In this document: positions 1 through 47,260 of the stretch, piece by piece
Numbering within the stretch: position 1 is the stretch's first letter
Layout: each line of letters opens with the position of its first letter
IMG/VR virus record: IMGVR_UViG_3300030099_005086
Coordinates: 46,740-110,739 of that record
DNA length: 64,000 bases
Strand: one strand, 5' to 3'
DNA from: a virus
Translations under genes and position numbers: made by a program
The notes under the pieces: model-generated
Database searches by the model: none
What the model saw: only the letters and a program-made list of their open reading frames with translations
What the model was told of the DNA's origin: nothing

Positions 1-1834
1 TCTCTTCATCAGGATTAAAACCTTGTGGTTGTATAGGTAGATTACTTAATGCTTGACCATAAGGACTATCAGCATTTCTTTGCATATCATTATAGATATT
101 ATATGTTGTTTGATACCTACCTACTGCATCACTACCTTGTGCAACTGCAGTAGCAGGATCTAAACCTTCTGCTTCATATGCAGCTTTTGTTAAATCATCA
201 AAATTAAACTCTCCTCTACTTGAGTTTAAATTCTTTTGTATTTCTGGATCTGCAAGATACTCTTCATAAGATGAATGTTTATCTGCATTATAGCCAGGTA
301 ATTTATCTAAATGTTTTTCTATAACTTTTAACTGTCTGTTAAATCCAAAGAATTCATCTGCCCATTTATCAAAACTAGTATATGTATCTTTTATCTTTGT
401 TTTTTCAAGATTTTCTTTAGAAATCCAACTTGGTAAAGCATTAGGATCAAGATTTATAGTATTATTATACATTTCTTCAAATGCATCTCTATACTCATCT
501 TTAAAATTATCTAGTGTTAAACTACCATTAGGATCTTTAAGAATTAATTTTCTCATTATATCTGGATCAGAACTTTCTGTTCTTTTCGTAGATCCTTCAA
601 CAACTTCTCTATCTACCTCACTTGAACCTTCATCACCTTGAAATATAGGTAACCCATTTTCCATAGTCATTTGCATACCAGGATATGAACCACCCATCTC
701 TACACCAAATCTACCAAATGTTGCAGGATTAGTTTGTTGTAACTCTGTTATAGAATCTTCAGCTTTATCACCAGGATTTAAATACTCACTTGCTTTATCA
801 TATATAAACTTTCCTATTTTAAAAGTTTTTGCAATTTTACCAGGTGCAAACATTTCAGGTGCTTCTAATCTATTTGTTCTTAAACTTGCTTCATACATAG
901 AAGGACTAAATGCATAATTAGCTTTTTCAAATGGACTAAGACTACCATAACTAGGACCTATTGGTGCAACGTCTCCAAGGTTTCCTTTATCTTCAGCATT
1001 TCCATCTTGTGCCATGTTCATCATACCTTGTGCCATACCCATCATAGGATTTTGACCTTGTGTTGCTTGTTGTGCTGCAACCATTTGTTGTGGCATTTGT
1101 TGTGCTTGTTGCATGAACTCACGCATTGCTAAGACTTGCTCTCTTTGATCAGCTGGTAATTGATCAATCATTTTAAGTTCAGCTTGTTGTCTATTAAGAT
1201 CTTCTACTTTCATAGAAAACTCAATAGGATCTATATCTTGTGAAACTAAATAAGGATATGATGCTAAAGGTACACCTTCTTCAAAGTCTTTCTTTCTTTC
1301 TTGTATAAATGCTAATTGAGATAACTTCATTTTATTTTTCTGAAGCATCAAGTCTGCAGTTTTTTCTGTAATAGGATCAAAAAAGTTTTCATCTAATAAA
1401 CCTATATATTTATTTAATTGATATTTTTTAGATACAGCAGCTGGAGTCATTTTCTTTTTAGAGTTAATACCAAGTTCAGCTAACTCACTTGTATTTAATC
1501 TCATTTTAGCAGTATCAGAATAAATAAATGATTGTTCTGGTAAACTTAAAGGAGTACCACCTTCAGTATGTCTTTTACCACTAATATTATATAACTCCAT
1601 TGAGTTATCATTATTAAGATCAGTTAATACTGTTTCTCCTTTCTCAGCTTCAAGATTAGCCATATCACGTGGAACAGGACCAATAGTATTTTTAGTTACA
1701 GAAGTTTGAACAGGCATTTGCATTCCACCCATACCAGGCATATAATTAGATCCACCATGATAAAATGCTTTTACAACTTTACCATCTCTTATCATATATC
1801 CTTCTGGTAATTTATTTATTTTAATCTTAGCCAT
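1..1834 (-). CDS. Virion cargo/ejection protein, partial (C-terminus runs off the window start); missing from the ORF track
   Basis: ATG at 1834-1832. Segments translated by hand are in one frame reaching the window edge: MAKIKINKLPEGYMIRDGKVVKAFYHGG...ANLEAEKGETV...ISGKRHTEGGTPL. The E.E.GE / G..H..GG signature is typical of Bacteroidota-phage cargo and tape-measure-like proteins. Includes a Q/M-rich stretch near 1000-1130. Confidence 0.7.
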   Translation of the reverse strand, partial: MAKIKINKLPEGYMIRDGKVVKAFYHGGSNYMPGMGGMQMPVQTSVTKNTIGPVPRDMANLEAEKGETVLTDLNNDNSMELYNISGKRHTEGGTPLSLPEQSFIYSDTAKMRLNTSELAELGINSKKKMTPAAVSKKYQLNKYIGLLDENFFDPITEKTADLMLQKNKMKLSQLAFIQERKKDFEEGVPLASYPYLVSQDIDPIEFSMKVEDLNRQQAELKMIDQLPADQREQVLAMREFMQQAQQMPQQMVAAQQATQGQNPMMGMAQGMMNMAQDGNAEDKGNLGDVAPIGPSYGSLSPFEKANYAFSPSMYEASLRTNRLEAPEMFAPGKIAKTFKIGKFIYDKASEYLNPGDKAEDSITELQQTNPATFGRFGVEMGGSYPGMQMTMENGLPIFQGDEGSSEVDREVVEGSTKRTESSDPDIMRKLILKDPNGSLTLDNFKDEYRDAFEEMYNNTINLDPNALPSWISKENLEKTKIKDTYTSFDKWADEFFGFNRQLKVIEKHLDKLPGYNADKHSSYEEYLADPEIQKNLNSSRGEFNFDDLTKAAYEAEGLDPATAVAQGSDAVGRYQTTYNIYNDMQRNADSPYGQALSNLPIQPQGFNPDEE

Positions 1835-1836
1835 AA

Positions 1837-4800
1837 TTATAATATTTCTATGTCAGCACCAGCTTTCATTAATTCTTCTAACATTGCTTCATCTATATCT
1901 ACAACATCACCACCATCTTCAAATGTAACAGATGCACCTATTGTAGGTATCATACTTTTTGATGAAGGATTATACTGAGCATCTGTAAATAATCTTAAAT
2001 CAGTATTATCTATTGGTATTCTTGTTTGTGCACCTAACCCTAAGTTAAGACCTGAAGAATCACCATCTCCAAATTTATAACTAGCAGAAGGTATAAAACT
2101 AAATTGTGACCCCCTTCTACCCATATCAAATCCTAAGTTACCTCTTACTCCAACTGAACCTCTAGCATGTAGCTCAGGATCTTCTTTAAGATTAGGATTT
2201 AAATCAACACCAAGTTTGCCTTTTGCAAAAAGATCTGCACTTATTCTACCTGATCTATTAAATGCATCTAATAAATTCAAATTTGCATCAGCACCTACAA
2301 ATGGTATTAATGAATCTGAATCTTTTGTTACACCTAGTCTACTCATTATAGAACCCATGTCAGTGCTTGCTACTTTATTTCTTTGTTGTAATGTAAACTC
2401 ATTATCTCCATCTTTGTTTTTTACATTAAAACCTATTTGTTTTCTTTGTCTATATCTACAATCACGTGGATTAGCTGCACAATATGCTTCTTGCTCTTCT
2501 GCACTCATACTTTCAAAACCTTCATCAGCAATTCTTTGATCTGTAGTTATAGTAGGCATTTGTGATTTCATAAGCTCTTGTGTTGCAAGATCAATAAGTG
2601 AGCCTTGATTAAAAGTATTATAATAAGACTTATTGTAAGACTGTTTAGGATACTTAGATGTATAATCACCCATACTAAAGTTAGTATCACCAACATCTAA
2701 TTTTGTTGCTTGTTGTGCAAACATATCCATTATTGAGTTTGATTCAGTACCATCTTGTGCCATTTTACTTATTGTTTTATCATCAGTTCTAAATAAACCA
2801 GTATTAACATCATAATCACCACGGTCATCTGCAAATGTACTACCAAATATATTTTGAGCATCTGCTAATTGTAATTCTGACTCAGCATCTGCTCTATCTC
2901 TTTGTCTTTGTTCTAATAATTTATTTAAAACTTTTGCACCTTCTACAGCAACTTTAGATCCTTTTTCAAAATTTTGAAAACCTTTACTGTCTCTAAACTG
3001 ATTAAATCTATTATATATTTGATCACCTAATGTATCACCATAAGATGTTTCAACTGTAGCTTGTGGTTCTTCTACAGATGGTTCTTCTACATCCTCTTCA
3101 GATTCAAACATTGACATATCCATTTCAGGTGGACCCATTTGTGCACTTTCAACAACACTTACTCCTGTACCAGTACCTGCATCTACATCTATAGTATCTG
3201 GAATACCGTCACCATCTCTATCATTTTTACCAAAAGTTGGATCAAAAAATTCAAACTCAGTACCACCTTGAGCTTTAGCTAATTGTGTATTAGATGGAGT
3301 ATTACCATATACAATTTTAAATTTATCTCCTTTTTTAAGAAGCATCATAAAATCATATTCTTTTTTATCTGATGTAACTTTAGTACCAATCTTATCAAAA
3401 CCTCTTCTTTTATATCTTAATGGTAATGATCCAGATTCATCCATTAACTTTAATTCTCTTGGAGTTAAAAATGCAGTTTCTTCTGTTATAACGTCTTCAC
3501 CACCTCCTTGCATTTCTACCATATCTGCAAAATTCATAGGCATATAATCTGTCATCATATCAGAATACATTATACCACCTCCAACTTTTTTCTTTAACTC
3601 TTTTGTAAAAAAATCTTTACCAGTTAAAAATCCACCATACCTAATATTTTCAAGTTCTTCTTCAGTAGCTATTCTTGTTCTTTGTTGAATATCCGTAGGA
3701 TTACTTCTATCATAAGGATTAACTGCTAAATCTGGTTTATCACCTGTACCAACATTATATATTGTAGCTGATACTTTACTAGGATCTTCATTTTTTATAC
3801 CTATATATTGTGCACCAGGTTGAGCTGATTCTGCTATATCACCAGGTAAAAGAGCACCTGTCTCTGAATCATAATAAGTATTACCTTGTTCATCTACAGT
3901 AACTGGAGAAAATAAATTAGGAGCCATTTGACTTCTTTGTTTATAAAAATCTCTTTTTAAAACATTCTCAGTTTGTTGTCTATTTAAAAGTTGTTTATTA
4001 TCAAAAGGATTAATATACATAGTTTCGTCCGTAGGATTACTATATGTAGTCTTTTGATATTTTTCAGGACTGTTATCTTGAATATAACTTGATGGATTAA
4101 ATTCTTTAATAACATTCTGTGCAAAGTTTGCTACATCAAGCAAAGGACTATCCAATCCTTCATATATATTAGTAAATGCAGGACCTTCATCATTTACATT
4201 TATATCATATGCTCCTGATTCTTTTAGTTTAGAAATAGCTTCTTCTCTACTCATACCAGTAGACATAAACAATTGTATTGCTTGATCTCTTTGTTGTCTT
4301 TTACTAGGATCTACATTTTGTGTTACATCTTCAGAAACATTTTGATTAGATGTATTATCTGTAGTATTATCTACTGTATTATCTGTTGTTGCATCTTCTG
4401 AAGCATCATCTGAAGTATCATTAGATTGTGCAGGTGGAACAAAACTAGTACCATTCCATACAAAGTTACCTTGTTCACCTTCTTTTTGCATTTGAGTAAA
4501 ACCAATTCTAGCATAATAAGCATTTATAGTTTCACCTTCATTTGGTGGTTCATTACCAACATTAGTATTAAGGTTTATACTTTCACCAGCATCTTGATAT
4601 TTTATTAAACTTCCACCATCTTCAAATTCAGGAAAAGTAAAATTATCTAATGCTTTTTTATAGTCAGTATTAAATTTTTCTATATCATAAACAGAATCAC
4701 TTTCTTTATTAAAGTTTTTATTTACATCTAAATTTAATATTTTATAAACATAGTTTCTACTTTCTTCAGGTACTCTTGCATCCTCTAACCAATCAAGATT

Positions 4801-5346
4801 ATTATATATATCAGTATCATCTTTAATTGTTTCTAAAAGTTTTTTAGTATTACCTACACCATAATTATAACCTATTAATGCTTTAGCTAATTGAACTTCT
4901 GATGTACCTTTTGCTAAATATGGTCTATCTTGTATCCAATCAAAATATTTTTTTGCTGCAGGAATAGCTTGATTAGCATCAAATACATCAAAACTTTTAT
5001 CAGTAAAACCTAATCTTCTTAACTCTCCTAATGTATCAGGCATAAATTGTGCTATACCTTTTGCACCTACCTTAGATTTAGCTTTAGGATTAAAGTTTGA
5101 TTCAGCATATATTAATCTTTTAAATATCTCATTTGGATCATATTGTGTAGATTCTTCAACTAAAGGTTTATTATCAAGCATAAATCCTTTTGTTTTATCT
5201 ATAGAAAGTTCTTTACCTGTTTGTGCACAAGAAGAAGGACAGTACATACTAGGTTGATAGACATAACCACCACCTACAGGAAATATAAAGTTATCTCCTC
5301 CATGTTTATAAACTTCTAAAGTTTTGTTATTTGATTTCAAATTCAT
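1837..5346 (-). CDS. Modular virion cargo protein with an N-terminal SLT lytic transglycosylase domain
   Basis: SLT motifs AESNFNPKAKS, GAKGIAQFMP, YNYGVGN and ESRNYV. Also a DRDGDGIPD Ca-binding-like loop and C-terminal amphipathic beta-strands. Lies in the cargo cluster downstream of the muzzle gene. Confidence 0.8.
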   Translation of the reverse strand: MNLKSNNKTLEVYKHGGDNFIFPVGGGYVYQPSMYCPSSCAQTGKELSIDKTKGFMLDNKPLVEESTQYDPNEIFKRLIYAESNFNPKAKSKVGAKGIAQFMPDTLGELRRLGFTDKSFDVFDANQAIPAAKKYFDWIQDRPYLAKGTSEVQLAKALIGYNYGVGNTKKLLETIKDDTDIYNNLDWLEDARVPEESRNYVYKILNLDVNKNFNKESDSVYDIEKFNTDYKKALDNFTFPEFEDGGSLIKYQDAGESINLNTNVGNEPPNEGETINAYYARIGFTQMQKEGEQGNFVWNGTSFVPPAQSNDTSDDASEDATTDNTVDNTTDNTSNQNVSEDVTQNVDPSKRQQRDQAIQLFMSTGMSREEAISKLKESGAYDINVNDEGPAFTNIYEGLDSPLLDVANFAQNVIKEFNPSSYIQDNSPEKYQKTTYSNPTDETMYINPFDNKQLLNRQQTENVLKRDFYKQRSQMAPNLFSPVTVDEQGNTYYDSETGALLPGDIAESAQPGAQYIGIKNEDPSKVSATIYNVGTGDKPDLAVNPYDRSNPTDIQQRTRIATEEELENIRYGGFLTGKDFFTKELKKKVGGGIMYSDMMTDYMPMNFADMVEMQGGGEDVITEETAFLTPRELKLMDESGSLPLRYKRRGFDKIGTKVTSDKKEYDFMMLLKKGDKFKIVYGNTPSNTQLAKAQGGTEFEFFDPTFGKNDRDGDGIPDTIDVDAGTGTGVSVVESAQMGPPEMDMSMFESEEDVEEPSVEEPQATVETSYGDTLGDQIYNRFNQFRDSKGFQNFEKGSKVAVEGAKVLNKLLEQRQRDRADAESELQLADAQNIFGSTFADDRGDYDVNTGLFRTDDKTISKMAQDGTESNSIMDMFAQQATKLDVGDTNFSMGDYTSKYPKQSYNKSYYNTFNQGSLIDLATQELMKSQMPTITTDQRIADEGFESMSAEEQEAYCAANPRDCRYRQRKQIGFNVKNKDGDNEFTLQQRNKVASTDMGSIMSRLGVTKDSDSLIPFVGADANLNLLDAFNRSGRISADLFAKGKLGVDLNPNLKEDPELHARGSVGVRGNLGFDMGRRGSQFSFIPSASYKFGDGDSSGLNLGLGAQTRIPIDNTDLRLFTDAQYNPSSKSMIPTIGASVTFEDGGDVVDIDEAMLEELMKAGADIEIL

Positions 5347-5388: not shown

Positions 5389-7113
5389 CTATCTAATATA
5401 TCCTAGTTCTTTAAGATATTGTTTACCTGCACTAGATATATTCTCTCCTCCTTTAAATTTCTTAATTAGTTCTAAAGTTTTTTGATTTTTATTTTTTCTT
5501 AATTCAACACCAACTTTTTTCTCAGCTAATTTGTTATCTACTTTTCTAAATATTTGAAATGGTGGTTTTTCTTTACCTTGCTCATCCTTATAAATGTTAG
5601 TTTTAGTTAAAGGATTATTTTCATCAGGATCACTAATGTACATTTCATCTCCTACATATACACCTATGTGAAAAGGATAATCACCCATTGCTTCTATCTC
5701 AATATCATTAAAAAGTGTTTCTACAGTAAAAGCATCTCTAGCTGGAAAATAATATTGTAATATATCTCCTCTTTGTAAATCATTAGGATCTTCTATAAGT
5801 TCATATCCATAACTCTTATAATTTTCAAAAAAGGTTCTATTATCATATACATCATCAGGAATGTTTGATTCTATATCAGCTTCTTTATATATATCCTTAA
5901 CAGCTTGAACACAAGTATTATCAAAGTAACAATTTGTTGCAGGAAATAATGTACTAATCAGTCTTTCTTTTTTACCAGCAGGACCTCTAGTTATATCAGT
6001 TTTTTCTTCATATAATTTTTCTGCAGCATCAGCAATTTGTTCACCAGTAAAATTTGTGTTAATTCTCCTATCTGTAGGTAAACCATCATAAAACTTTTTT
6101 AAATCTTCATTAGCACCTGGATACATTTCAGGTACACCAGTTACTCTAAGTGTGTTAACATACTCAATAACTTCTGGATTTGTTACTTTACCTTCAACTA
6201 TATCTTGTTCTAATTTTGAAGCATCTGCATAACTATTAAGTATTTCCATTGCTTCATTAGACATTTGATTTGTTGAGTCACCTCCAAATTGTTTTATAGA
6301 ACCCTTTGGATTTTTTAAATATACATTCTCTAAAGCATCTGCATCAGTTTGCACATATCCATCTGGCATAAGATTATTATCTGAAAGAAAAGTTAATATA
6401 TTAGTTTTCTTCTCAGGACTCATATCTGTTGAACCTATAACTGATCCAATAAGATTATTAATTACATCTTCTCCACTTTCTTGTAGAGCTGCTAAGATAG
6501 GTCTATTATCTTCAAGCAATGTAGTAGCTTCATGACCTATTCCAAGAAGATTTGAACCAAGAAATCCTGCAAGTTTATCTACTCCTATTTTATCTAGAAA
6601 TCCACCTACTTTAGGAATATCTTTTATTTTATTTTGTATTTCTTCAGCAGCAAATCTACCTGCCATAGAATGTCTTAAATTATCAATATTTGCTAATTGC
6701 TCTTCACTATCAGAAAAATCTTTTGCTCTTTGACCTGGATTATTTAAATAAGTACCAATGTTATCTTGTAAATCTAATAACTTTTCAGATAAATATGATA
6801 TAGTATTTTCTTCTTCAGATAACTCTTCACCAACTTGTGCCATTGGTATTTCAAAAACCATATTACCTGGAAAAATATAATCAGCACCTGGCATCATTAT
6901 TTTACTATTACCTAAATTATCTATACCTAATACAGAGAAATCAACATCTTCCATAGTTATATTACCAGTAGGTATAATATTAAAATCATTATTTACATCA
7001 GGACTATCAGACTTATATCCTTGCATGCTTATAGAACCTTCTATTATGCTTACCTGTTCATTTGGTCCACCTGGTAAACCTTTACGCGTCTTTTTGTAAA
7101 ATGATTTTTTCAT
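5389..7113 (-). CDS. Modular virion protein with a C-terminal NlpC/P60-like peptidoglycan peptidase
   Basis: NTCVQAVKDIY (Cys), DLQRGDIL and FHIGVYVGD (His) match the NlpC/P60 pattern. The middle module has a D..RH...G..HE...D..NN..G pattern. Confidence 0.65.
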   Translation of the reverse strand: MKKSFYKKTRKGLPGGPNEQVSIIEGSISMQGYKSDSPDVNNDFNIIPTGNITMEDVDFSVLGIDNLGNSKIMMPGADYIFPGNMVFEIPMAQVGEELSEEENTISYLSEKLLDLQDNIGTYLNNPGQRAKDFSDSEEQLANIDNLRHSMAGRFAAEEIQNKIKDIPKVGGFLDKIGVDKLAGFLGSNLLGIGHEATTLLEDNRPILAALQESGEDVINNLIGSVIGSTDMSPEKKTNILTFLSDNNLMPDGYVQTDADALENVYLKNPKGSIKQFGGDSTNQMSNEAMEILNSYADASKLEQDIVEGKVTNPEVIEYVNTLRVTGVPEMYPGANEDLKKFYDGLPTDRRINTNFTGEQIADAAEKLYEEKTDITRGPAGKKERLISTLFPATNCYFDNTCVQAVKDIYKEADIESNIPDDVYDNRTFFENYKSYGYELIEDPNDLQRGDILQYYFPARDAFTVETLFNDIEIEAMGDYPFHIGVYVGDEMYISDPDENNPLTKTNIYKDEQGKEKPPFQIFRKVDNKLAEKKVGVELRKNKNQKTLELIKKFKGGENISSAGKQYLKELGYIR

Positions 7114-10100
7114 TATCTAAATGATAAATTTAATTTAGTATTACTTATTTTTAATAACATCTTGGTATTACCTGAGCGAGTTCTTCTAAATATAATATTA
7201 TTTTGATAATGTCTAAACTTCTTATGCTCTAATTCAAGTTTATTATAATTTAAATTAACAGCATTAAGATCTTTAACATAACCGTTTAGTCTTGTTATAA
7301 ATATTGAATTTTCTGTATTTGTAAACTCACCTCTATCATTTGTAATATCCCAAAACTGATTAAATCTATACTTCTGTTCTTCTTTAGAATATAAAATTTG
7401 TATATCAGCAAGACCAATAATAGGATATGTAGTTAACAAAGGTGCATTATTTTTAGGAGATATATTAAGTTTTAATAAACCTGATACTTGCTCTGAGTTA
7501 TATATAATAGCTTCATCAAAATTAAAATCTAATCTATGGAATCTATCAGAACCATTAAATGGATCAGAAGGATGAAAGTTTTTATATACATATGATTCTA
7601 ATTCATACTCTATACTTCTAACTGTGTTTACATTAATACCTGTAGATTCTATCAAATCTATTTCCCATGGGTAGTCTTCATCATAAAAATTTACAAATAA
7701 ATCATTTCTATCATTATGTTTCCAAATACCTGTAGATAACCCTGCTTCTAGAGGTATAATATCACTTGGGTTATTAATATTTCTACATGCAGGTGTACCA
7801 TCTGCTAAAGATATTGGAGTATAACCTGGCGGACATTCCCAAATATCACCCTCTACTATACTAGGTGGTGCTATTCTATTACCTTCTTTTGTAGTTAAGA
7901 AATGATCAATACTATTAAATGTTAAATCAGGATGCCAATCATGGAATGATACCCAAGATTTAGTTTTAGGATCAAAACTTACAGTCCATGATACATCATC
8001 AAAATAAGTACTATCAGTTAAATCTATTGGTATAACTTGATCAACTTTTTCTGGATCTACTGTTTCTAAATATTCACATATATCATCACCACTTGGTAAT
8101 GTTATAAGTGTTCCACCTTCACCACAAACTAATTCAAAACTTTCAACTAATCTTTGACAGTCAGGACATTCTTCTGAAAAAGGTGGTGTAGTTACAGTAG
8201 CATATCCTGGTGGACAAACAAATCTTGCTGCATTTTGAAATGCTTGACCTGTATCACTTCTAAATATATCATTTAATTCTTCTAAATTATTAGAATCTAT
8301 TAACTCTTGTTCTGTATTATTAAATAGAGCACATGCAAAAGCACCAGGAGTGCTATTATCATTAGCAACAGCTCTAATCTTAGTACAACCTATAGGTAAA
8401 TTAATTCTATATATAAATGCTCTTTGATATGGAACACTATCATCACCATATTGCATTGTGTAATTAGAACATCCACCATCAGGACATATAGGCTCTAAGT
8501 TATTTTCAATATAACCAGCAGTACCAAACATTGTTCCTGCACCTGTAGCTCCATTTGGATCAACATTTACAACTGTATTAAAACCAGCACCATTAATATC
8601 TGTTGATAATGTAAAACTATTATCTCCAGCTAAAAGAACATATAAAGGTAAAGTTCCTGGAAAATTAGGATCTGAGTTAAAATTTGGTTCATTACCATCT
8701 ATAGTAACTGCAAAATTATATTGTAAAGAAGCAACTGAATTTCCTAAATTATCAAAAGCCCATACAGATAACTGATTTACAACACCAGTTTGACCACCAG
8801 GTGCAGGCATATCAACCCACCATCCATTTCCATATCCTGATGGTGATGCAGTACATGATTGATGATTAGTATTATTAGCACCATTAATCATTTTTACATC
8901 CTGAATATTTGTAGAAACATTACCTGCTGCATCAACAGGTACACCATTTCCATTATATCTATTAATAATTAATGGACAATCTTTTCCATATCTCCAAACT
9001 TGCTGTCTTTGTACTACAAGAGGATTACCTACTTGTTGAGCTAATACAACTTCCGTATCTAATACTTGTACACTAAATGCTTCATCTTGAAAAGTTCTCT
9101 CACAAAGACCTGTTGCATTATTAAAAGTAAATCCATCAGGACATTCACTTATTTGTGCTGCTCCTTCACATTCTGTTATATTATATACAAAACCTAACTC
9201 AGGATCAAATTCAATACATTCTTTAAGTTCTGATTTAGGTATATAATCTTTTTTACAGAAATAAACAATATCATTATTAATATCATAAACTGTTTGACAA
9301 CCTGCAGCATTAACTGGATTATCACTATACTCTGGATAATCTTCTATACCAGGAAATGATTGTAATAATTTAGATGGTAAATATTTATTAAACCAGTTCT
9401 TCATTCCAAAGTTTGCAATATTAACTAAACTTCTACCATCATATTGGAATATCTTACCTTGCTCTTGTGATATATAGAATACACCACTAGGAGTATTAAG
9501 AACACTTCTTGAGCTTTCACAAGATCCATATTCATGTGATACATCAGAGTTAACAACGTTCTTTAAGTTTTTCATATTAAATAACTCTCCATCACCAAGT
9601 GTTATCTTTGTACCTAAATCAGTTGTAACTAAATCAACACCTCTAAACTGCATTGGTGATAATCTAGGGAATAAAATTAATGCACCATATTCAGAAATAG
9701 GTTTGATAGTATTTACTCTATCTTTAAAGTCATTATAGTTTAATGGTAAGAAAACTCTCCAGAAATCTCTTTTAGATTCTTTCTGTGCTTGTAAAGAATA
9801 GATAAGTCTTTTAGGATAATATGTATAACAAGTTTCTGCTACTTCAGGATTATAATCACGTGGTTGTATTTCACCAAAAGAAATTAGTTTAGTAAAGAAT
9901 CTGTCAATACTTAATGATGGATCATACTTATAAAAGTTACCCATCTTTATTATGTCAGCATGAAATAATTGTTTTACATCTGTATATGTAGCATAATCAT
10001 AAAATCTTTTTTCTGGCGGATCTTCAAAGTCTCTAAAATCAAGATTCATACTAGACTCTACAAAAAAATCATTTATACCACTACAGTGTGTATACATGTA

Positions 10101-13755: not shown

Positions 13756-14670
13756 CTAATAAATATTTACAGGTGGATGACTTCTAAACATATCATAATA
13801 CTTATTATATTCTGCTCTTCTACTAACTTCATAGAACTTTCTCATTTCTTCAAAGTTTGGGGTATTAACAAAACCTAAAGCATTGTTTCTAGCTGCTCTT
13901 AATCTTCCTTCTATTAATCCTAATTGTTGAGATACATTTTCTCCAGCAAATAACATATTTTCTAATATTCTTTGTTTAAGAGCATACTCATAATATTCAT
14001 TACAATAAGGATGATCTAATACTAATAAATCACCAGCAGAATCTTCCATAGTAGCTTGATAACTCATATATACTGTGCCTGTTGTAAAAGTAGTTAATAA
14101 GTATCCATCTTTTATCTCTGCTTGATTATGAGATGTTGTATTTAAATTAGGACAATCACAATCAACATGACTTGTTTCTGTAATGCGTAAAGGATAAAAT
14201 CTTGTATATGTTCTATACTGAGTAGGACTATATTTTTGCACAACCATATACTCTGATTTAAATGTTACACGTCCTTTACGGTCTTCTTCAGGACAAGTTT
14301 TTATTGTACATACATCTTTACACTCTGGATCTTCACATGGTCCTTGCTCTCCTGGTGCAGGAGTATATTTAGCTTGAGTAGTATCTATATGTGTACCACT
14401 AGGAAAAGCTTGAGATACTTGATAATCATCACAAACAAAAGCATAATTTAATGTATAAAAATCTGAAGGTAATTGACCTTTACCATGTTCAACATCTACT
14501 ATTACCTCTTTAGTTCTATTTATTCTTAACCCTAAATCATAGTTAACCCTTATAGCTACCTTTATTAATTGTTGAGGTTCTACCATACCCTCTAAAGCAT
14601 ATGATTGAAAATCAACAGTTACATCTTCTAGAAGTTGATCAAATGTTCTATATTTATGTGATACACTCAT
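13756..14670 (-). CDS. Tail tubular/ring protein (P22 gp4-like)
   Basis: Motifs VEHGKGQLPSDFY and GTVYMSY...DHPYCNEYYEYALK; syntenic position before the muzzle in crAss-like phages. Confidence 0.7.
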   Translation of the reverse strand: MSVSHKYRTFDQLLEDVTVDFQSYALEGMVEPQQLIKVAIRVNYDLGLRINRTKEVIVDVEHGKGQLPSDFYTLNYAFVCDDYQVSQAFPSGTHIDTTQAKYTPAPGEQGPCEDPECKDVCTIKTCPEEDRKGRVTFKSEYMVVQKYSPTQYRTYTRFYPLRITETSHVDCDCPNLNTTSHNQAEIKDGYLLTTFTTGTVYMSYQATMEDSAGDLLVLDHPYCNEYYEYALKQRILENMLFAGENVSQQLGLIEGRLRAARNNALGFVNTPNFEEMRKFYEVSRRAEYNKYYDMFRSHPPVNIY

Positions 14671-17213: not shown

Positions 17214-17789
17214 TTAACTTTTTGTTTTAGTAAAAATGGTAACTGAATCAGCAGGTGTTGTTGAAATAGTTGTCACTTTTACTCTATATGTTGTGTTACT
17301 TTTTAAACCTACAATATTAAAAGATGAAACATTAGATTTTAAATTTTCTGCACCAGGTGGTATTATAAATGAAGGATCACTTTTACCAGTGTTTCTACCT
17401 CTACCAGCTTCTGCATATTGTACTTTTACACCAGTAGCATTTTGAGGAACTCCAGCCCATCTTACTTCAGCAGATGATCTTGTTGTATTTCCAGATTGTA
17501 CATATTGTACTGCATTTTCTGCAGTGCTTGCATTTCTAGAATATAAAGCCATTTTTTGTAATATCCCTCCCATTCTTTCACCATTAGCAATTGTCATTCT
17601 ACCAGTTGCTTGTGAACCTACTTCAAATGAATCACCACAATCAACAACACAATCAATACAAATAGTTTCTGCACATGTTTCACCTTTACCATCTGTACAA
17701 GAAGAATACACACATGGTGTAGATAGACCTATATCTTTACATCCACATGAAACTTTACTACAATTACTTGAATTACAATTACAATTCAT
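17214..17789 (-). CDS. Small Cys-rich virion protein with a fibronectin type III-like domain
   Basis: Cys-rich N-terminus; FN3 pattern VRW...V.Y...GLKSNTTYRVKV. Confidence 0.6.
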   Translation of the reverse strand: MNCNCNSSNCSKVSCGCKDIGLSTPCVYSSCTDGKGETCAETICIDCVVDCGDSFEVGSQATGRMTIANGERMGGILQKMALYSRNASTAENAVQYVQSGNTTRSSAEVRWAGVPQNATGVKVQYAEAGRGRNTGKSDPSFIIPPGAENLKSNVSSFNIVGLKSNTTYRVKVTTISTTPADSVTIFTKTKS

Positions 17790-35832: not shown

Positions 35833-38016
35833 TTATCTAATATTTTTAAATCCTGATCTTCTTGGTCTAGAACTATACCTGGATCTACCACCTAAATTCC
35901 TAAAAGGACTCATATTTAATTTATACAAATTCTTAGACTTATCCAAGTTATTGTCTGATTCTTTTTCAATCCGTTTGCTATATCCTCTATTAGATTGTTG
36001 TATTTTAGCAAAAGCAACTAATGCAGCAAATGAAACTAATCTATCCACGTTTAATCCAGGATAATAAGCAAGCATTTCTGTTAATAGCATTTTATCTGGT
36101 ATTCTTTCTACACCTAATGTTTGTGATATAACTTCACCATTATCATCTAATTGTTCATCTATTGATTCTCTAAGAAATTCTATTGCATAAGATATTAAAT
36201 GATTTTTAAATAATGTACCAGTATTTTTCCAACCATACTCTTGATATACTGTTCTATTTGAACCAAGATCTTTTAAAAATAATACTTGTTGTTTTGGTAC
36301 AAGATATTTTTGTTTTCTTTTTGAAATCATATGTTGAATAAATAAAGATATATTGTTCTCTACTAATGTCCATGCATTATACCATTCAATAATCATTTCA
36401 AGTTGTTCATGTGTTTTATTTATATCATCATATCTACCACACCATGAAGCAACTATTTTATCTCTTTCTATAAAACTTTCTAATCCATTTTTAGTTTCTC
36501 TTGTAACTTCTACAGGATTCTTATAAACAAAAATACTACATAAAGAATCTGATGTAGTAGTTTTACCTTCTGACACAGGGTCAATAGATGCATAATAAGT
36601 ACCAAACTCTGGATTTTTTACAGGTCTTTCCCATACAACTAATACTCCAGTTTTATCTTCTCTTTTTCTATTTACAGGAAATTCAGTAATAGGTAGTTTT
36701 TTAGAACGTGTAGCTATAATACCTTTTTGATCTTTATCTAATTCAATAAATTCATATGGATATTTTTTTTCCTCTATTTGTTTTAATTGTTTAGATAAAA
36801 TACTTTGTGGAAAGATTGAAGCTTTTCTATAAGCAAATGCTTCTGCAATATTAACAGGTTTTTGTGATATACGTAATTGATATTGTTCTGGTGATAGTTC
36901 TCGTTTCCAATCTTTTCTTTCTTTGTGTATTGCTTCTAATGCTTCTTTAACTAAAGAGTTGCCATATTTATCAATATAAGGGGGCATAGAGTGCTGTTCA
37001 GGAATAAATAGACCTGCTATACCAATTGTACCTTTATCATCTAATAGATTAGTTTCTATAGCATATATATCATTAGCTTGTGGATTTAGTATCATATCTT
37101 TTAATGGATTACATTGTGTAAGATCACCCACTGATCCTGCAGCAATAAACATACCAGTTGTCATCATACCAGATGTCATTGCTGGTCTAATATATTCATA
37201 TGTTTGATCCATTTTAGGTGCAATACCTGCCTCCTCATGAAAAAAGAAAGTACATGGTCCACCTACTCCAGTTGTTGCATTTTTTTCAAAAGAAGCTCCT
37301 TGTATCTTAGACATAAGACCTTTGTTAGTTTTTCTATTATTTATTCTAACTTCTATCTTCTGTTCCCACAATAATACTTTTTCTGGTGTACATGGTCTAT
37401 ACCAAGCTGTATGCTCATTAAGAAAAGTTTTATATTCATCTAAAAACTTCCATGAACCTTTATCATTAATATAATCTTTTAATGATGCACCTATTTTACA
37501 TATAGATCCCTCTTCAAACCAAAACTGATTTATAATCTTACCCATATGAAAGTATGAAGATGCTATCTGTCTTTTTTTAAGAATAGCTGCATGCTTGTAA
37601 TTTAATTCAGCAAGTAACTCATATAATGCCATATGATATTGTGCATCTCTAACTTTAGCAAATCCGTACTTTTTTTCTTCTTTATCAAAGATTGGTAAGA
37701 AGTTTAACCACATATAATAATCTCTTGTTAAATACCATATATGTTTATCTCCATAAAAGATAACTCCTTCTCTACATTTTTCTTTTTCTTTATTCCAATA
37801 ATTTATAAAGTCTTTTGATCTAAATGGTTTATCACAATAAAAACCATTAGTATTAAAATTTTTTGCTTGTTCATTAAATAGCAAAGCAGTATCATCAAAC
37901 TGATACTGCCCTGGTTCTCTAAATAAAGTATTTAAAAATTTTATAAAACTTTCTTTAGTTTCAAATTCTTTATAAATCCATTCACCATCTTTATATGTAG
38001 GAATTTTTTTAAACAT
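35833..38016 (-). CDS. terL: Terminase large subunit
   Basis: Walker A variant LKKRQIASS, Walker B FFHEEAG, nuclease motifs ASIDP and LVENN, and NVDR near the C-terminus. Confidence 0.9.
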   Translation of the reverse strand: MFKKIPTYKDGEWIYKEFETKESFIKFLNTLFREPGQYQFDDTALLFNEQAKNFNTNGFYCDKPFRSKDFINYWNKEKEKCREGVIFYGDKHIWYLTRDYYMWLNFLPIFDKEEKKYGFAKVRDAQYHMALYELLAELNYKHAAILKKRQIASSYFHMGKIINQFWFEEGSICKIGASLKDYINDKGSWKFLDEYKTFLNEHTAWYRPCTPEKVLLWEQKIEVRINNRKTNKGLMSKIQGASFEKNATTGVGGPCTFFFHEEAGIAPKMDQTYEYIRPAMTSGMMTTGMFIAAGSVGDLTQCNPLKDMILNPQANDIYAIETNLLDDKGTIGIAGLFIPEQHSMPPYIDKYGNSLVKEALEAIHKERKDWKRELSPEQYQLRISQKPVNIAEAFAYRKASIFPQSILSKQLKQIEEKKYPYEFIELDKDQKGIIATRSKKLPITEFPVNRKREDKTGVLVVWERPVKNPEFGTYYASIDPVSEGKTTTSDSLCSIFVYKNPVEVTRETKNGLESFIERDKIVASWCGRYDDINKTHEQLEMIIEWYNAWTLVENNISLFIQHMISKRKQKYLVPKQQVLFLKDLGSNRTVYQEYGWKNTGTLFKNHLISYAIEFLRESIDEQLDDNGEVISQTLGVERIPDKMLLTEMLAYYPGLNVDRLVSFAALVAFAKIQQSNRGYSKRIEKESDNNLDKSKNLYKLNMSPFRNLGGRSRYSSRPRRSGFKNIR

Positions 38017-42327: not shown

Positions 42328-42330
42328 ATA

Positions 42331-42691: not shown

Positions 42692-45600
42692 TTATTTTTT
42701 TAATAACTTTAGTTTTCCTCTTATAATAAGTGGTGATCCAAACTCTAATCCTTTACTTGCTTTCCTTTTAGAAACTTTGTAAAATGGATTTATTTCTTTA
42801 TCATATTCTTCTTTATTTATTTTTAATTCTGCACCATTTGCAAATATTATTTTAAATTCTGGTTTGCCATTTTTGTAAATAATCTCTTGTTCTATAGCAC
42901 CACCATTTTTTGCAAGTGTAAGAGATTGTTCTTGTTCATCCATAGCAACTTCATTCATAAACTTAATTACATTATTGTCTATCTTTTTTTGCTGTTCTTT
43001 ATATTTTTCTTTTTCTATATTAAACTTTTGATCAATTCTATTTTGTTCTATTCTATTATTTCCTTCAAAAAGTCTTTTTTGACTATCAATTTCATTAGCT
43101 ATATAACTTTGAATATTATTGATAGCATGACTTATACTGCTTATTATATAATCTGGTGCTGCATCATCCCCAAGGTCTATATAATTATCTTTAAATTTAG
43201 ACTTACGTATTGTAGCACTATTTAGTTCTCTAGGAACAATATTACCATCTTCACCTATATTTGCAAACCATTCTAAAGCTTTTCTTTGATATTCAGGTAA
43301 ATTATTAAAAGCATCTTCTCTTAATTTATTAGGATTTAAATTAAATCCTTGTTCTTCTAAAAATTGTAAACTTTTACCATCATCATAACTAGCATTTTCA
43401 GATATATCTTGATTATTAAAGTGTGTATTACCTGGTATTAATCTAGCTATATTTTTTTGATCTGATATAAAAGCTGCTGGATCATAGTTTCTATTAGAAT
43501 TAATACCTGTAAATTTTTTTCTAGTTACATTCATGAAGTCATTTTGAATTTCAGTAATTAACCCAGGATTACGCTCATCAGGAAGATTATCTCTACTATG
43601 TGCTGTATACCCTTCCTTGTTTGCTAATTCATAAAAAGTTTTATAATCAGTATCATTATCTTTATTAAATCTTTTTAAAAATTTATTTCTTTGTTTTATT
43701 GTTTTACTTCCTATTTTTTGCATAAATGTTGATAACGCAGTGTCTGGAGTATTACCAAATCCTTTTGGTGCACTATCATTCCATTCATCTCTTTCTTTAT
43801 CATAATTAACATATGCATTTCTATCTATTGTAGGAAATACTTCATTTACAAATTTATCATACATTTCATCACTATAAGGTGAATGATATTTATTTGGTTG
43901 ATTTCGTTTTAATTCTGCAAGTTCTTCTTCTGATCTTTTAGTTATACCTCTTTCAGCTAACCAATCTTCATATGCTCCAGCATTATAATTATTTGACTCA
44001 CCTAACTTTTGCATTGCATTATAAGGATTTATATCTTTAGTTCCTTTAGATCCAAATAACTTATAAGCAATTTCTGCATTTATATCTTGTACTGGTTCAT
44101 TACTTAACCACTCTTTTACTTTTTTTTGTGTTCTTGGATTAGATCCTAATTTATTTCTAACTCTATCTATAGCTTGTTGTTCAGGATTAGTTCCAACTAA
44201 AAATTCATTTATTCTATCTAAATATGAAATATTTGAATCTCCAAAAGTATAAGGATTCTCATCTTTTTTAGGTATTTCTGTAGAAGGATTAATTGCTTCT
44301 AATAATGGTGCATCAGGCATTTCAAATCCTCTTTCATTTAATAAGTTTAAATGTTCTTGAGTAAATTCACCTTCTTCTGGATTCCATATACCCGCATCTT
44401 GTAATGCAGATTCTAAATTACGTTTATAGGATTTAACTTCTTGAGGCATTGTATAATACTCAGTCTCAGCTTTATCTCCCTCATAATCTGGACTATATGG
44501 ATTTTCTTTACTAGCATTTGTAAAGAATGTATTATAATAATCTTTAAACTGTTGATAATTTGGACTATATTTCCCTGAACCCATTATACCCATGTTATTA
44601 GATAAATGATCTAATTCATGTGTGATAGTTCCTTTTAATAATGTTTCTTTAGGTTTAATTACATCTCCATCAATGTTATAATATGGAAGCTGTGTATATG
44701 ATAAACCTAATGGATCTTTTGGTGTATCAGGATTTAAATATACACCTGTTTGTTTATCTGGATCATTAAGTTGTAATGGAAAAGTACCTTCTTGATAATT
44801 AACAAAAGCTAGAACTCCAGCAACATTTGGATCATAAGTAAAACCAGGTGCTTGTTGTGTGCTTCCTTTCACTTTAGATCCAGTGCTATATATTAGTTCA
44901 ACATTTTTGTTTACAATATCATCTAACTGCGTGTCAGTTAAAGTTTCACCTGTAGCATTTAAATGTTCTTTTCTTAATCTTTCTCTTTCAGGTGCACTTC
45001 TGTAATGTGTTTCTAATTCTTTTTGTTCTTGACTAATATCAAAATTACCTGATTCAATAGTTTGTTTTAAGTTATCTGCTGTTACATTTTCTGTGGTTAC
45101 TTCATTTGAACCATCAGTACCTTGGAATGTAGGTAAAGATCCACCATTCTGTTTTAAAGTTTTTAAATATTTTTTATAATCTGATAAATTACCAATTTCT
45201 TCTACATTACTTAAATAAATTAATCCATCTGGAACATCAAACTCTTTAAAACTTGTTCCTGCACGAAACTTGCTTCCTTGTTGTGGACCACCTCTATATA
45301 TTTCATTAAGAAATTTATTATCTATATCTATTTTGTATACATTTCCTTTATAGTTTAATAGATCACTTCTATAGTCTGCATATCTTAAAGGATCAAATGG
45401 ATCTGCTGAAAACCATCCTGATGTTTTATCTCCATAATTAAATGGTGAATCACCATATCTATATAAAGTTGTTGTTCCATCATCTCCTAATTTGTTAACA
45501 TAACTTTGTATATTTTCTGCTTCTACACCAGGCAATCTAGATCTTGCATGAAAATAATCTAAACCAGATTCAGCATCTTTTGCAACATTAAGTTTAACAT

Positions 45601-47260
45601 TATCTAGAAAATTAACTTTACTAGAAACTGCATCAGTTTTTCCTCCAGGTAATACTTTAATTTCTCCATCAATATATTTTCTATTAGGACTATAATGACC
45701 ATATGTTGTATTCCAGTTATCAATAAATGTTTGAGCTTTTTTAGGATCTTCTTCAATTAATTTTACAAGTTCTTTATCAGATTGTGGAACACCTAGTCTT
45801 TTTGCTCTATTAAATTGATAACCAGCTTTTACAGCCATGTCTGCTTCTCCTATCTCATTAATTTTTTTTAATTGTTGAAATAACATTTCATCTTGTAACG
45901 CTAGTTTACCAGTACTTCTAAAACCTATAAAAGGATTAATAGCTAGATCTAATGCTCCTGCTTTACTAAATAAGTTTGGAGAAAAAGTTCTAGCACCAAG
46001 AAGAAAATCTATAGGTGACATACTAAGTTCTGCTCCCGCAGGCATATCAGGATTAATTGTACCATCTGGAAGTATTTCACTACTTTCTATAGCTTTATCA
46101 AAATATCTTTGTGTTGCATCCCTTTCAAGTTGATTTATATATTCATCAAACCTAAGCTGTTCTTCTGGTGTAAGATTAGATTGTTGTGGTACAGTTATCT
46201 TTGGTGTTTCTCTACCATCCTGAGCTCTCATACTACCTTCAGGTAAATCATCTGCAATCTCTGGATCAAATGCAACATTGTTCATTTGCCATACTATGTC
46301 TTCTTTGTTAAATAATTGTAACATTCTATCAGCAACTGAAAATCCTTTTTCATCTTTACCTTTTTGATTAAAGACTCCCTCTTGCTCTAAAAGTTTATTT
46401 AGATCATCCATAGTAAATGGTCTTGTATCTTCTGCTTTATAAATATTAAATTTATCTGCTAAATATCTTAAGGCCATTACATCAGAACGTCTTTCATGGG
46501 GACTACGATCATGTGCTAGTATTGCTTGTCTTTCTTTATTTATCCAGTCTTCTTTAGCATCTTCAAGAGAATTATAACCCATATCTTCCACAACAGCAAC
46601 AAAACTATTATAACCTTCTCTATTTGGATTAGTTTGTTCTTGCCATCTTTTTTCTACTGCTTCATCTAAATTTTTATTGTATTTATCTGTACCTACTTTT
46701 GATCTAGAGGCTAATTCATTTTGAATGCTCTTTGGCATATACATACCGTGCATATCATGAGTATAAGTATAGAAGTCATCAATACTCATATCTTGAATAT
46801 TTAACATATGACCATATTCATGTGCTAGTATTGCTTCTTGAAGTGTTGGATTATTTTCTGCATCTGCAACTGTAGGATCAAATCTGATACTTCTATCACT
46901 TGGTTCATAATCTGATAAAAAACTAAGTAAGCTCATACCTGGATCAAACATAGAATCAAAAAATCCTTTATCTGTTCTATCAACCATACTATGACCTGCA
47001 AATGCTGCAGCTACACCATAAGGTCCCATATCTACTTGTAATCCTGGACCACGACTAAAACCTTCACGTTCATTGGCTATATATTGTCTATACAAACCAC
47101 GTTTAGGATCAATAGGATAATTACCTTCTTCTATTAGCCGTTTATAGTTATCACTAGTTACATACCTTTTGTAAAAGTCATCAACTCTTGACATAATCTC
47201 ATCAAAAGGTACTGCAGAAGATTCACCTGCATTTTGCTTTTTTTTCAACTTTCTCATCAA
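42692..47260 (-). CDS. Polyvalent protein: two zincin (HExxH) modules flanking an ADP-ribosyltransferase-like module
   Basis: AHEYGH (46808-46822) and THELDH (44606-44620), each with a downstream Glu. LYRYG...GWFSAD...VYKIDI...KEFDVP lies between them. Confidence 0.65.
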   Translation of the reverse strand: MMRKLKKKQNAGESSAVPFDEIMSRVDDFYKRYVTSDNYKRLIEEGNYPIDPKRGLYRQYIANEREGFSRGPGLQVDMGPYGVAAAFAGHSMVDRTDKGFFDSMFDPGMSLLSFLSDYEPSDRSIRFDPTVADAENNPTLQEAILAHEYGHMLNIQDMSIDDFYTYTHDMHGMYMPKSIQNELASRSKVGTDKYNKNLDEAVEKRWQEQTNPNREGYNSFVAVVEDMGYNSLEDAKEDWINKERQAILAHDRSPHERRSDVMALRYLADKFNIYKAEDTRPFTMDDLNKLLEQEGVFNQKGKDEKGFSVADRMLQLFNKEDIVWQMNNVAFDPEIADDLPEGSMRAQDGRETPKITVPQQSNLTPEEQLRFDEYINQLERDATQRYFDKAIESSEILPDGTINPDMPAGAELSMSPIDFLLGARTFSPNLFSKAGALDLAINPFIGFRSTGKLALQDEMLFQQLKKINEIGEADMAVKAGYQFNRAKRLGVPQSDKELVKLIEEDPKKAQTFIDNWNTTYGHYSPNRKYIDGEIKVLPGGKTDAVSSKVNFLDNVKLNVAKDAESGLDYFHARSRLPGVEAENIQSYVNKLGDDGTTTLYRYGDSPFNYGDKTSGWFSADPFDPLRYADYRSDLLNYKGNVYKIDIDNKFLNEIYRGGPQQGSKFRAGTSFKEFDVPDGLIYLSNVEEIGNLSDYKKYLKTLKQNGGSLPTFQGTDGSNEVTTENVTADNLKQTIESGNFDISQEQKELETHYRSAPERERLRKEHLNATGETLTDTQLDDIVNKNVELIYSTGSKVKGSTQQAPGFTYDPNVAGVLAFVNYQEGTFPLQLNDPDKQTGVYLNPDTPKDPLGLSYTQLPYYNIDGDVIKPKETLLKGTITHELDHLSNNMGIMGSGKYSPNYQQFKDYYNTFFTNASKENPYSPDYEGDKAETEYYTMPQEVKSYKRNLESALQDAGIWNPEEGEFTQEHLNLLNERGFEMPDAPLLEAINPSTEIPKKDENPYTFGDSNISYLDRINEFLVGTNPEQQAIDRVRNKLGSNPRTQKKVKEWLSNEPVQDINAEIAYKLFGSKGTKDINPYNAMQKLGESNNYNAGAYEDWLAERGITKRSEEELAELKRNQPNKYHSPYSDEMYDKFVNEVFPTIDRNAYVNYDKERDEWNDSAPKGFGNTPDTALSTFMQKIGSKTIKQRNKFLKRFNKDNDTDYKTFYELANKEGYTAHSRDNLPDERNPGLITEIQNDFMNVTRKKFTGINSNRNYDPAAFISDQKNIARLIPGNTHFNNQDISENASYDDGKSLQFLEEQGFNLNPNKLREDAFNNLPEYQRKALEWFANIGEDGNIVPRELNSATIRKSKFKDNYIDLGDDAAPDYIISSISHAINNIQSYIANEIDSQKRLFEGNNRIEQNRIDQKFNIEKEKYKEQQKKIDNNVIKFMNEVAMDEQEQSLTLAKNGGAIEQEIIYKNGKPEFKIIFANGAELKINKEEYDKEINPFYKVSKRKASKGLEFGSPLIIRGKLKLLKK

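Follow-up and report, generated by a model that had tools for sequence, protein, structure and literature searches.

The stretch analysed here, called the window, comprises 64,000 nucleotides of IMG/VR virus record IMGVR_UViG_3300030099_005086; it is the right-hand 64 kb of that complete 110,739-bp record, which has terminal repeats and ~30% G+C, and its source is an uncultured crAss-like phage whose genome is complete. Four of its large proteins, C574, B1169, A946 and D1522, carry a short peptide, the tag, at the joints between their modules; this tag is real, conserved over a large clade, and confined to cargo-type proteins. As for its function, we tentatively prefer an uncut docking or threading handle, a reading to which we give somewhat less than an even chance. 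The four genes are located as follows:

5389-7113, minus strand: C574, the first cargo protein, 574 amino acids (aa)
1837-5346, minus strand: B1169, the second cargo protein, 1169 aa
2-1834, minus strand: A946, the third cargo protein, 946 aa, with residues 1-611 in the window; the gene runs past the window start
42692-47260, minus strand: D1522, a multi-module protein of 1522 aa, outside the cargo block and first gene of the minus-strand block

Form and distribution of the tag

Regarding its form, the unit of the tag is hydrophobic-[A/Y/F]-[Q/K]-x-G-[G/x], and a long form has two units in tandem, the full version being [K/R]-Y-G-G-x-L-P-K-A-Q-x-G-x-E; an iterated position weight matrix (PWM; 355 distinct sites, 80 loci) gives the consensus [A/K]-[K/R]-Y-G-G-[E/S]-L-P-K-A-Q-x-G-x-E-[T/L/V/I], with a length of ~13-16 residues in two conserved halves. 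The initial annotation of the window had merged AQ-x-G and x-x-GG strings into one motif, and the relatives bear this out: after the conserved N-module of the first cargo gene, orthologues swap M-A-Q-x-G-x-E for M-A-K-x-G-G-x-L, M-Y-K-R-G-G or M-F-x-x-G-G, and because Q/K and A/Y/F alternate at one orthologous position the two forms are one unit. The G-x-E end is missing from whole subclades (..YGGSLPKAQWYN..). The long variant seen in A946 is present in other phages too, in 6 distinct contexts, such as LAKLGGSLPIFQGDEGSSEV at an N-terminus, and one A946 homologue carries RYGGALRKFQGDTGSSEV, the long variant found in A946 and D1522.

The initial annotation listed 24 strings, and all of them (24/24) are present at their places, as rechecked by translation of the coordinates. 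In this genome, the four proteins (4,211 aa) contain AQ.G 8 times and the remaining 31,218 aa contain it twice, and AQ.G.E is found 5 times versus none; ranked among all gapped tri-residue patterns under a shuffle null, AQ.G has a family-wise p of ~0.1. A loose regular expression is ~2-fold enriched (17 matches vs 8.9 expected), and models built from the listed strings themselves, leaving one protein out at a time, reach ~4-fold; the 12-mer match LPIFQG/LPTFQG scores no better than other top chance pairs among the best ungapped pairs of the whole proteome, and a discriminative model on GG context alone is weak. Taken alone, this genome makes a case that is suggestive, short of proof.

As for relatives, megablast and tblastn against a phage collection gave no near relative, with csAssE-Sib as the single weak match; a related-locus search with B1169 as sole query found no locus, and the sole match of B1169 in a word-indexed protein search was a 93%-identical copy, too near to inform. 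A phmmer search with A946 against 1.84 billion representatives returned 1,694 homologues. The 80 loci used here were found with the A946 family alignment and fetched with 10-kb flanks, and their open reading frames (ORFs) were called; they are mutually related, and their counts are not independent events.

The PWM was trained on the cargo proteins of these loci (355 sites), with this genome left out of training. Applied to the 110.7-kb genome, it gives 8 matches scoring at least 10, versus 0.59 in shuffles; the four flagged proteins account for 6 of them, and two of the matches are in D1522, a gene class absent from training. It gives no match in the major capsid protein (MCP), portal, TerL or replication proteins, in line with the initial annotation, which had noticed the motif in the four large genes and not in these. 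Across the 80 loci the three cargo genes have 1.70, 2.18 and 1.64 sites per 1000 residues, versus 0.04, 0.06 and 0.00 in the muzzle gene and the two downstream giant genes, densities to be read with the caveat that the matrix was seeded with a simple regular expression and trained on the gene classes where it is then dense, the negative classes lying at the noise floor. The pattern AQ.G.E behaves alike, at 0.29 per 1000 residues in the A946 homologue and 0.50 in each of the two genes upstream of it, versus 0.01-0.02 in the muzzle gene and the two downstream giants. The tag is found in 78/79 loci, spanning 30 lineages at 70% identity, with a median spacing of ~300 residues; moreover, a GG lies within the first 35 residues in 42/50, 52/64 and 73/73 members of the three cargo gene classes, versus 0/64 and 0/65 in the two downstream genes. 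The enrichment of cargo over other proteins, proposed at the outset as a check, thus holds with an independent PWM.

The individual strings fared unequally. Tested against a composition background, the core sites stand with the independent PWM, and AQ.G alone does not go beyond the family-wise value given above. The composite model supports seven sites made of nine strings: MAQVGEE, FEDGG with YQDAGE, KAQGGTE, MAQDGTE, RAQDGRE, KQNGG with LPTFQG..., and MAQDG of A946. FYHGG, YKHGG, the second FEDGG, KFKGGE, KQNAGE and LPIFQGDEGSSEV have orthologous counterparts among the conserved leaders, tails or variants of relatives, and KQFGG is backed by the homology ends at C574 residues 274-280. AKNGG is weak; AQTGKE is weak in the model, yet it is located before the SLT domain. 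Finally, EMGG, RYGG, KKVGGG, MQGGGE, KKVGVE and FANGAE have no individual support, and chance is their likely explanation.

Module joints in the four proteins

Read from sequence comparison, the cargo proteins appear as beads on a string: fixed end pieces, namely an N-module or basic leader and a C-terminal tail, hold exchangeable folded modules between them, with a tag closing every leader and every module and opening every tail. BLAST against the 80 loci puts the internal ends of homology no more than 12 residues from a tag in 65% of cases for B1169, 65% for C574 and 62% for D1522, versus 3-7% at random. The early view of motif copies sitting at module edges agrees with these breakpoints, and the comparison of homologues then suggested gives breaks that coincide with the tag; the proposed swappable cassettes are recognisable too, in that proteins of other phages have the SLT, N-terminal and 547-713 modules again at different positions. 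The sites are as follows:

6820-6852, minus strand: tag EIPMAQVGEEL, C574 residues 88-98; PWM 22.6, the genome's top match
6280-6294, minus strand: half-tag KQFGG, C574 residues 274-278, end of module 112-274; BLAST homology ends at 274-280; weak in the PWM
5392-5460, minus strand: C-terminal tail with KFKGGE, C574 residues 552-574; a ..LNSLGLL-type tail as in the first-cargo proteins of loci L009, L013, L027, L056 and L078
5293-5319, minus strand: leader unit LEVYKHGGD, B1169 residues 10-18; like ..NKTLEVYQQGG and ..NKKSLKQxGG of relatives
5209-5235, minus strand: weak instance SSCAQTGKE, B1169 residues 38-46; AQ-x-G-x-E present, PWM 0.2; SLT homology begins at ~72
4582-4626, minus strand: full composite tag FEDGGSLIKYQDAGE, B1169 residues 241-255, end of the SLT module; PWM 19.2; 12 homology ends in 240-260
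3256-3285, minus strand: tag QLAKAQGGTE, B1169 residues 688-697; PWM 12.7
2743-2772, minus strand: tag ISKMAQDGTE, B1169 residues 859-868, a conserved module end; PWM 9.2; 11 homology ends in 860-880
1840-1923, minus strand: FEDGG and conserved tail ..LMKAGADIEIL, B1169 residues 1142-1169
1751-1777, minus strand: VVKAFYHGG, A946 residues 20-28, end of the conserved leader; G27 and G28 vary hardly at all among 73 sequences
989-1024, minus strand: tag MMNMAQDGNAED, A946 residues 271-282, end of the conserved N-domain; PWM 10.7
611-658, minus strand: long variant ..NGLPIFQGDEGSSEV, A946 residues 393-408; disordered in the AlphaFold2 (AF2) model
47225-47260, minus strand: N-terminal leader MRKLKKKQNAGE, D1522 residues 1-12; like the leader ..NKKGLAKFQNAGE of locus L017; terminal, outside the 17-residue reach of the PWM
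46208-46237, minus strand: tag GSMRAQDGRE, D1522 residues 342-351, end of module 141-354; PWM 12.7; homology to locus L026 ends at 354
45098-45154, minus strand: composite long tag KQNGGSLPTFQGTDGSNEV, D1522 residues 703-721, end of module 547-713; PWM 11.4; four homology ends at 713-717

C574 consists of a conserved N-terminal module, two middle modules and a conserved C-terminal tail. Its residues 1-98 are common to 38 distinct first-cargo proteins of other phages, where they head proteins of 509-2191 aa, and all homology to relatives stops right after the tag at 88-98. The AF2 model of residues 1-130 (39 sequences) is a beta domain with 86-90 as its last strand; the predicted local distance difference test (pLDDT) falls from 92 to 55 past residue 90, and confidence collapses over the tag region 91-99. 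The C-terminal tail of the first cargo gene comes in two conserved classes, of which C574, with its KFKGGE, has one. Of the bracketing of an NlpC/P60 domain by KQFGG and KKVG, the KQFGG side stands; KKVGVE does not, and the NlpC/P60 label is unconfirmed (Pfam E 0.13). Separate from the tag, a second strongly conserved element, GLPGGPNE (C574 residues 13-20; window 6724-7113, minus strand), is present in nearly all relatives.

B1169 has a leader, an SLT module, middle modules, an inserted beta-rich unit and a conserved tail. The N-terminus of the equivalent genes is usually a basic leader that ends in a unit (..NKKSLKQxGG), a description that fits both B1169 and D1522. The SLT label of the initial annotation is confirmed by Pfam (PF01464, B1169 residues 67-173), and the SLT module (72-256) sits at residues 215-382, 703-865 or 1828-1989 in other phages' proteins of 539-2110 aa; of the two strings said to bracket it, the side formed by FEDGG and YQDAGE holds and AQTGKE is weak in the PWM. 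Relatives of the ISKMAQDGTE site have ..NTG..AQMG.E in the same context. At the other end, B1169 closes with FEDGG-DVVDIDEAMLEELMKAGADIEIL, and a tail GGE-x-VD...LIAAGADIEIL closes nearly all the B1169-equivalent proteins of the 80 loci despite differing upstream parts.

Between the conserved module that ends in MAQDGTE and the tail that starts with FEDGG, B1169 has an insertion, a 270-residue beta-rich unit; in relatives, the module equivalent to the MAQDGTE-ending one leads almost directly into the tail. A beta-barrel-like unit flanked by MAQDG and FEDGG had been described at this place, and the insertion seen against relatives confirms a flanking tag on each side. No homologue of the unit (869-1146) turned up in the 80 related loci. 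The region 869-1169 (window 1840-2742, minus strand) is beta-rich as well as Gly/Ser/Asn-rich, has ..IGASVTF just before FEDGG, and resembles an outer-membrane barrel; its ..ASVTF end recalls a terminal outer-membrane beta-signal.

The A946 family has a conserved N-domain (1-250) and a conserved C-domain (660-900), with a variable middle between them. The N-terminus of its homologues is near-uniform, ..KLPEGFxxxxGKVVxxMxxGG.TGDQ.YGLVT, and FYHGG is therefore a conserved family feature. After the conserved N-domain, homologues carry [Y]GG-x-LPK-A-Q-x-G-x-E, and AQ.G.E is observed 59 times in them versus 4 expected, mostly at residues 250-350. The AF2 model (73-sequence alignment, mean pLDDT 69) has confident domains at 45-246 and 660-860; the four strings listed for A946 fall in 26-43 and 247-422, both with pLDDT <50. 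Overlaying motifs on AlphaFold boundaries, as the initial annotation had suggested, thus locates the tags either at the last strand of a domain or in linkers predicted to be disordered, and none of the motifs lies inside a folded domain in the models of A946 and C574 1-130. Foldseek with the A946 and C574 models gave no match at E up to 0.001, and A946 gave none against PDB sequences.

D1522 as a whole is absent from 5 complete relatives, in which its sole recurring piece is module 541-713; its modules 141-354, 547-713 and 741-1051 recur within other phages' cargo proteins. HExxH occurs at residues 147 and 881, in two mutually dissimilar modules that have no Pfam match and for which protein-atlas leads point to LPD23 at only 0.86-0.87. 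Pfam gave no significant match on nine module segments; of the module labels assigned early on, SLT is secure, and zincin and ART are unconfirmed by Pfam.

Possible roles: docking handle or cutting site

If the tag is not cut, it would be a repeated flexible handle that joins a Gly-Gly hinge to a recognition patch, and its binding might be weak yet multivalent, to a surface that repeats inside the particle, with the tail-barrel rings, the portal wing, the scaffold and the capsid interior as candidates. Such a handle would keep the modules separable for N-to-C threading through the tail, and any module flanked by tags could be packed and ejected, which would leave cassettes free to be exchanged while the end handles stay fixed.

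This reading, tentative as it is, is favoured by the length of the tag and its two conserved halves; a hinge or handle also makes sense where the tag ends short leaders and precedes a conserved 22-residue C-terminal tail. It is favoured, too, by the loss of the G-x-E end in subclades, by the absence of tags from a neighbouring giant protein that is expected to be cleaved, and by the protease searches. On the complete genome, PF03420 (Peptidase_S77, gp21-type) had no match at E up to 1, nor was there a match to PF04586 (Peptidase_S78, HK97-type), PF00574 (ClpP), PF02902 (C48, for Gly-Gly-specific proteases of the Ulp/adenain/ASFV type) or PF03412 (C39, for double-glycine leaders); families C5, C57 and C63 were not searched for. 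In crAss001, the cargo protein gp45 has 6 aromatic-GG units versus 0.2 expected, and its continuous stretch 425-552, resolved by cryo-EM (PMC10172136), holds GG at 427, 434 and 447, so these three units are uncut in virions; GG at 209, 263 and 562 flanks the two resolved pieces, 214-245 and 425-552.

Several points weigh against an uncut handle. The binding surface consists of inferred candidates only, and the kinship of the crAss001 aromatic-GG units with the tag of this clade is one that we infer: a matrix of gp45 GG units fails to transfer to this genome (10 vs 6.4 matches), and no relation of the A946 family to gp45 is detectable (hhalign, 73-sequence profile, probability 0.5). Conserved inter-domain motifs of viral multi-domain proteins are usually protease sites, and N-terminal leaders that end in a tag recall the cleaved capsid-targeting sequence of T4 internal proteins. 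In addition, a zincin-like YHEAFH site is invariant in the neighbouring giant protein, which is packaged in the virion, and the first cargo gene is enriched in extra HExxH modules; in relatives (L007-L086) it has 25 HExxH versus 0.6 expected (~40-fold), in 18/68 proteins, often two each and in diverse contexts, which suggests many different zincin-like cassettes.

Processing at the tag is the alternative that survives best, and we regard it as possible though doubtful. The cargo proteins would be polyproteins loaded through their end handles and cut at the tags, in the particle or after ejection, so as to free enzymes or effectors. The tags do trail modules as P-side recognition sites would, and most N-termini have short tag-ending leaders reminiscent of the T4 capsid-targeting sequence; the G-x-E end resembles, in this genome, the S/A/G-x-E sites of the phiKZ head protease, but it is absent in subclades. 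In gp45, the GG units that lie within the resolved domain are not cut; the mass spectrometry of crAss001 came from one gel band and is hence compatible with cleavage (PMC10172136).

As for the enzyme, the candidates would be the zincin-like domain of the giant RNA-polymerase protein, the embedded HExxH modules or a host envelope protease, and no classical head or GG-specific protease was found among the families searched. The giant protein, of 5162 aa, is encoded outside the window (L003:87-15575 = G000:C1:27087-42575, minus strand); it has YHEAFH at 2154-2159 with E2181 downstream, and Y2154, H2155, E2156, A2157, F2158, H2159 and E2181 are invariant in 12 homologues at 30-35% identity. It also bears the virion RNA-polymerase DFDID site at 3873-3877 and, near its end, a DUF7831. 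By BLASTP its zincin-like region matches the C-terminus of the crAss001 virion protein gp47 (2133-2290, YHEAFH aligned, E 4e-08), and for the RNA-polymerase-associated virion protein of crAss-like phages (phi14:2 gp65, crAss001 gp47) a zincin-like protease domain has been named and cleavage of the fused protein is expected (bioRxiv 10.1101/2020.03.07.982082). The YHEAFH site thus appears conserved across the order as a predicted peptidase. On the other side, the region has no Pfam peptidase match and its sole PDB hint, a Pro-Pro endopeptidase, is non-significant (E 0.32); the giant protein carries no junction tags, with 0 sites in 122,568 residues of relatives, and would be cut elsewhere if it is cut.

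The embedded HExxH modules are enriched in cargo genes, and the theory of polyvalent proteins predicts release of domains by embedded metallopeptidases (PMC5512222). The zincins of D1522, put forward by the initial annotation as processing enzymes, are poor candidates for this role: D1522 is poorly conserved, as judged from the 5 complete relatives, and HExxH is found in the cargo genes of 22/79 loci versus the tag in 78/79, which rules them out as a universal processing enzyme. The more specific proposal, namely virion-internal processing throughout Crassvirales in which the YHEAFH domain or embedded zincins cut handle-loaded cargo at the tag and free a re-assortable effector cocktail, seems unlikely to us; if true, it would release cell-wall, membrane and host-takeover effectors and would account for gp45 pieces on both sides of the portal.

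A role after ejection is improbable. The tag would be read by a host periplasmic factor (a protease, a chaperone or an insertion machinery), or would act as a refolding or spacing element in the envelope. Tagged proteins do carry cell-wall modules, with SLT here and, in relatives, LysM-like and SLT-like sequences beginning immediately after a tag; the ..ASVTF end of the B1169 beta-rich unit before FEDGG resembles an outer-membrane beta-signal, but that unit is without homologues in the 80 loci. More speculatively, the conserved A-Q recalls the rule in Bacteroidota of a Gln after the signal-peptidase cut, but the tags have no hydrophobic signal-like segment ahead of them, and their -3 position is often Pro or Lys.

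A recombination box in the DNA, by which nucleotide stretches at module borders promote exchange and the peptide is a by-product, would explain why homology breakpoints coincide with the tag, but it is very improbable and largely refuted by codon usage. Compared over 360 distinct sites, the residues Gly, Pro, Lys, Ala, Gln and Glu conserved in the tag use codons as the background of the same genes does (for Gly, GGT/GGA are 0.59/0.30 at the tag vs 0.57/0.34), Leu alone shifting modestly; synonymous sites are free, and selection therefore acts on the peptide and not on the DNA, which the Q/K and A/Y/F alternation also fits. Lastly, a chance or composition effect of Gly/Gln-rich linkers, which the single-genome figures (the loose expression, AQ.G, the LPIFQG/LPTFQG pair and the GG context) would allow, is scarcely credible and is refuted for the core sites by the independent PWM, the 30- to 100-fold difference that separates gene classes in the 80 loci, orthologous conservation and breakpoint coincidence.

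Genomic setting and known systems

The minus-strand block of the window is, by Pfam and PHROGs matches, the virion module of Crassvirales, and it includes the following genes:

35833-38016, minus strand: TerL (PHROGs)
33025-35781, minus strand: portal (PHROGs)
29926-31581, minus strand: MCP (PHROGs)
13756-15341 (genes at 13756-14670 and 14670-15341), minus strand: ring proteins 1 and 2 (PF24228, PF25702)
7113-13745, minus strand: muzzle protein (PF25731 crAss_MUZ, E 1.6e-26), with zero tag sites; upstream edge of the cargo block

The genes of C574, B1169 and A946 lie directly downstream of the muzzle gene, in an order that agrees with crAss001 gp44-gp47, and beyond the window A946 is followed by genes of 1031, 5162 and 1874 aa; the D1522 gene is not at such a position.

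Some further genes deserve mention. A 393-aa homologue of the SbcD/Mre11-like DNA repair exonucleases (15918-17099, minus strand; phrog_704, E 3e-45) stands within the tail gene block, flanked by the ring protein genes and a fibronectin-III protein gene (17214-17789). Between the portal and MCP genes, a highly acidic protein of 432 aa (31614-32912, minus strand) has no family match and is probably the scaffold; it has one unit-like ..NVFSRGGKVDL close to its N-terminus. Two proteins, of 1457 aa (window 21516-25889, minus strand) and 1079 aa (L002:654-3893, minus strand, outside the window), share arrays of a ~30-residue Cys repeat, GCTDP.A.NYNP.A..DDGSC (E 2e-25 mutually), which are probably carbohydrate-binding-like repeats of surface or fibre proteins. 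Finally, a cluster of small, very basic ORFs of 63-122 aa lies outside the window (G000:C1:10088-13052, minus strand, L001), several of them K-rich and then Y/K-GG, such as KKKKAYGGSIIEN (at the C-terminus), SVYQKGGEK, SKYGGKP and QMKKGGSK; they score high in a model of cargo-type GG context and may represent additional small proteins that are tagged and packaged, or may be due to chance.

Phages of the crAss-like group, which load and eject megadaltons of protein, rank with the most abundant viruses of guts and oceans. The tag offers a sequence signature by which packaged cargo may be found even where, as with D1522, the gene lies outside the cargo block, a map of cassette boundaries that explains the extreme variation of cargo genes in length and content, and a concrete target whose mutation bears on tethering versus processing of cargo. 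If it is a loading handle, foreign modules could be loaded into laboratory phage particles; if it is a cutting site, a new specificity of virion proteases would be defined.

The closest system is that of crAss001 (Bayfield et al. 2023, PMC10172136), whose cargo proteins C1 (gp45) and C2 (gp46) are, as here, encoded directly after the muzzle gene; gp45, in contrast, is missing the LPKAQ-x-G-x-E half. The crAss001 atlas describes no motif, modularity or processing, with 0 uses of cleav-, proteoly- and protease (PMC10172136). The peptide LPKAQ is not mentioned in the searchable literature, to which the junction peptide is new: the atlas is without motifs, and the paper on polyvalent proteins without a linker.

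Polyvalent proteins of phages and conjugative elements enter together with the DNA and combine unrelated enzymatic modules in one chain; release of the units by zincin-like peptidases embedded in them has been proposed (Iyer et al. 2017, PMC5512222). The cargo proteins resemble them in having several unrelated domains per phage polypeptide near virion genes, and D1522, with its two HExxH modules and weak LPD23-like leads, fits the picture; however, that class is defined by domain content ('linker' is used 0 times, PMC5512222), whereas here a junction peptide defines it, and the envelope-directed cargo adjoins the muzzle gene.

Turning to the virions of other phages, internal proteins of T4 carry an N-terminal capsid-targeting sequence that is cut by the gp21 prohead protease. 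Here, too, diverse, fast-evolving proteins bear a short common peptide, the leaders being of 10-30 residues and tag-ended, and a common short N-terminal leader (..NKKSLKQxGG or ..KLPEGFxxxxGKVVxxMxxGG) is found on the cargo proteins; unlike T4, where separate small genes have one leader each, the tag is also internal, between modules and before tails, and no S77 protease is encoded. In phiKZ-type phages, inner-body and head proteins are processed at S/A/G-x-E by the gp175 protease; as there, several proteins have a common short site ending in Glu, the tags ending in G-x-E, but the tag is far longer, G-x-E is lost in subclades and a related protease was not found in the PF03420 search.

As for cassette exchange, polymorphic toxins have boundary motifs, such as VENN in CdiA, DPxGL in Rhs and pre-toxin domains, and T-even tail-fibre genes have conserved boxes. 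The tag is like these in that a short conserved element marks the point of exchange; unlike them, with their one boundary before a C-terminal toxin or their DNA box, the cargo proteins have the element at every joint, where it is constrained as a peptide.

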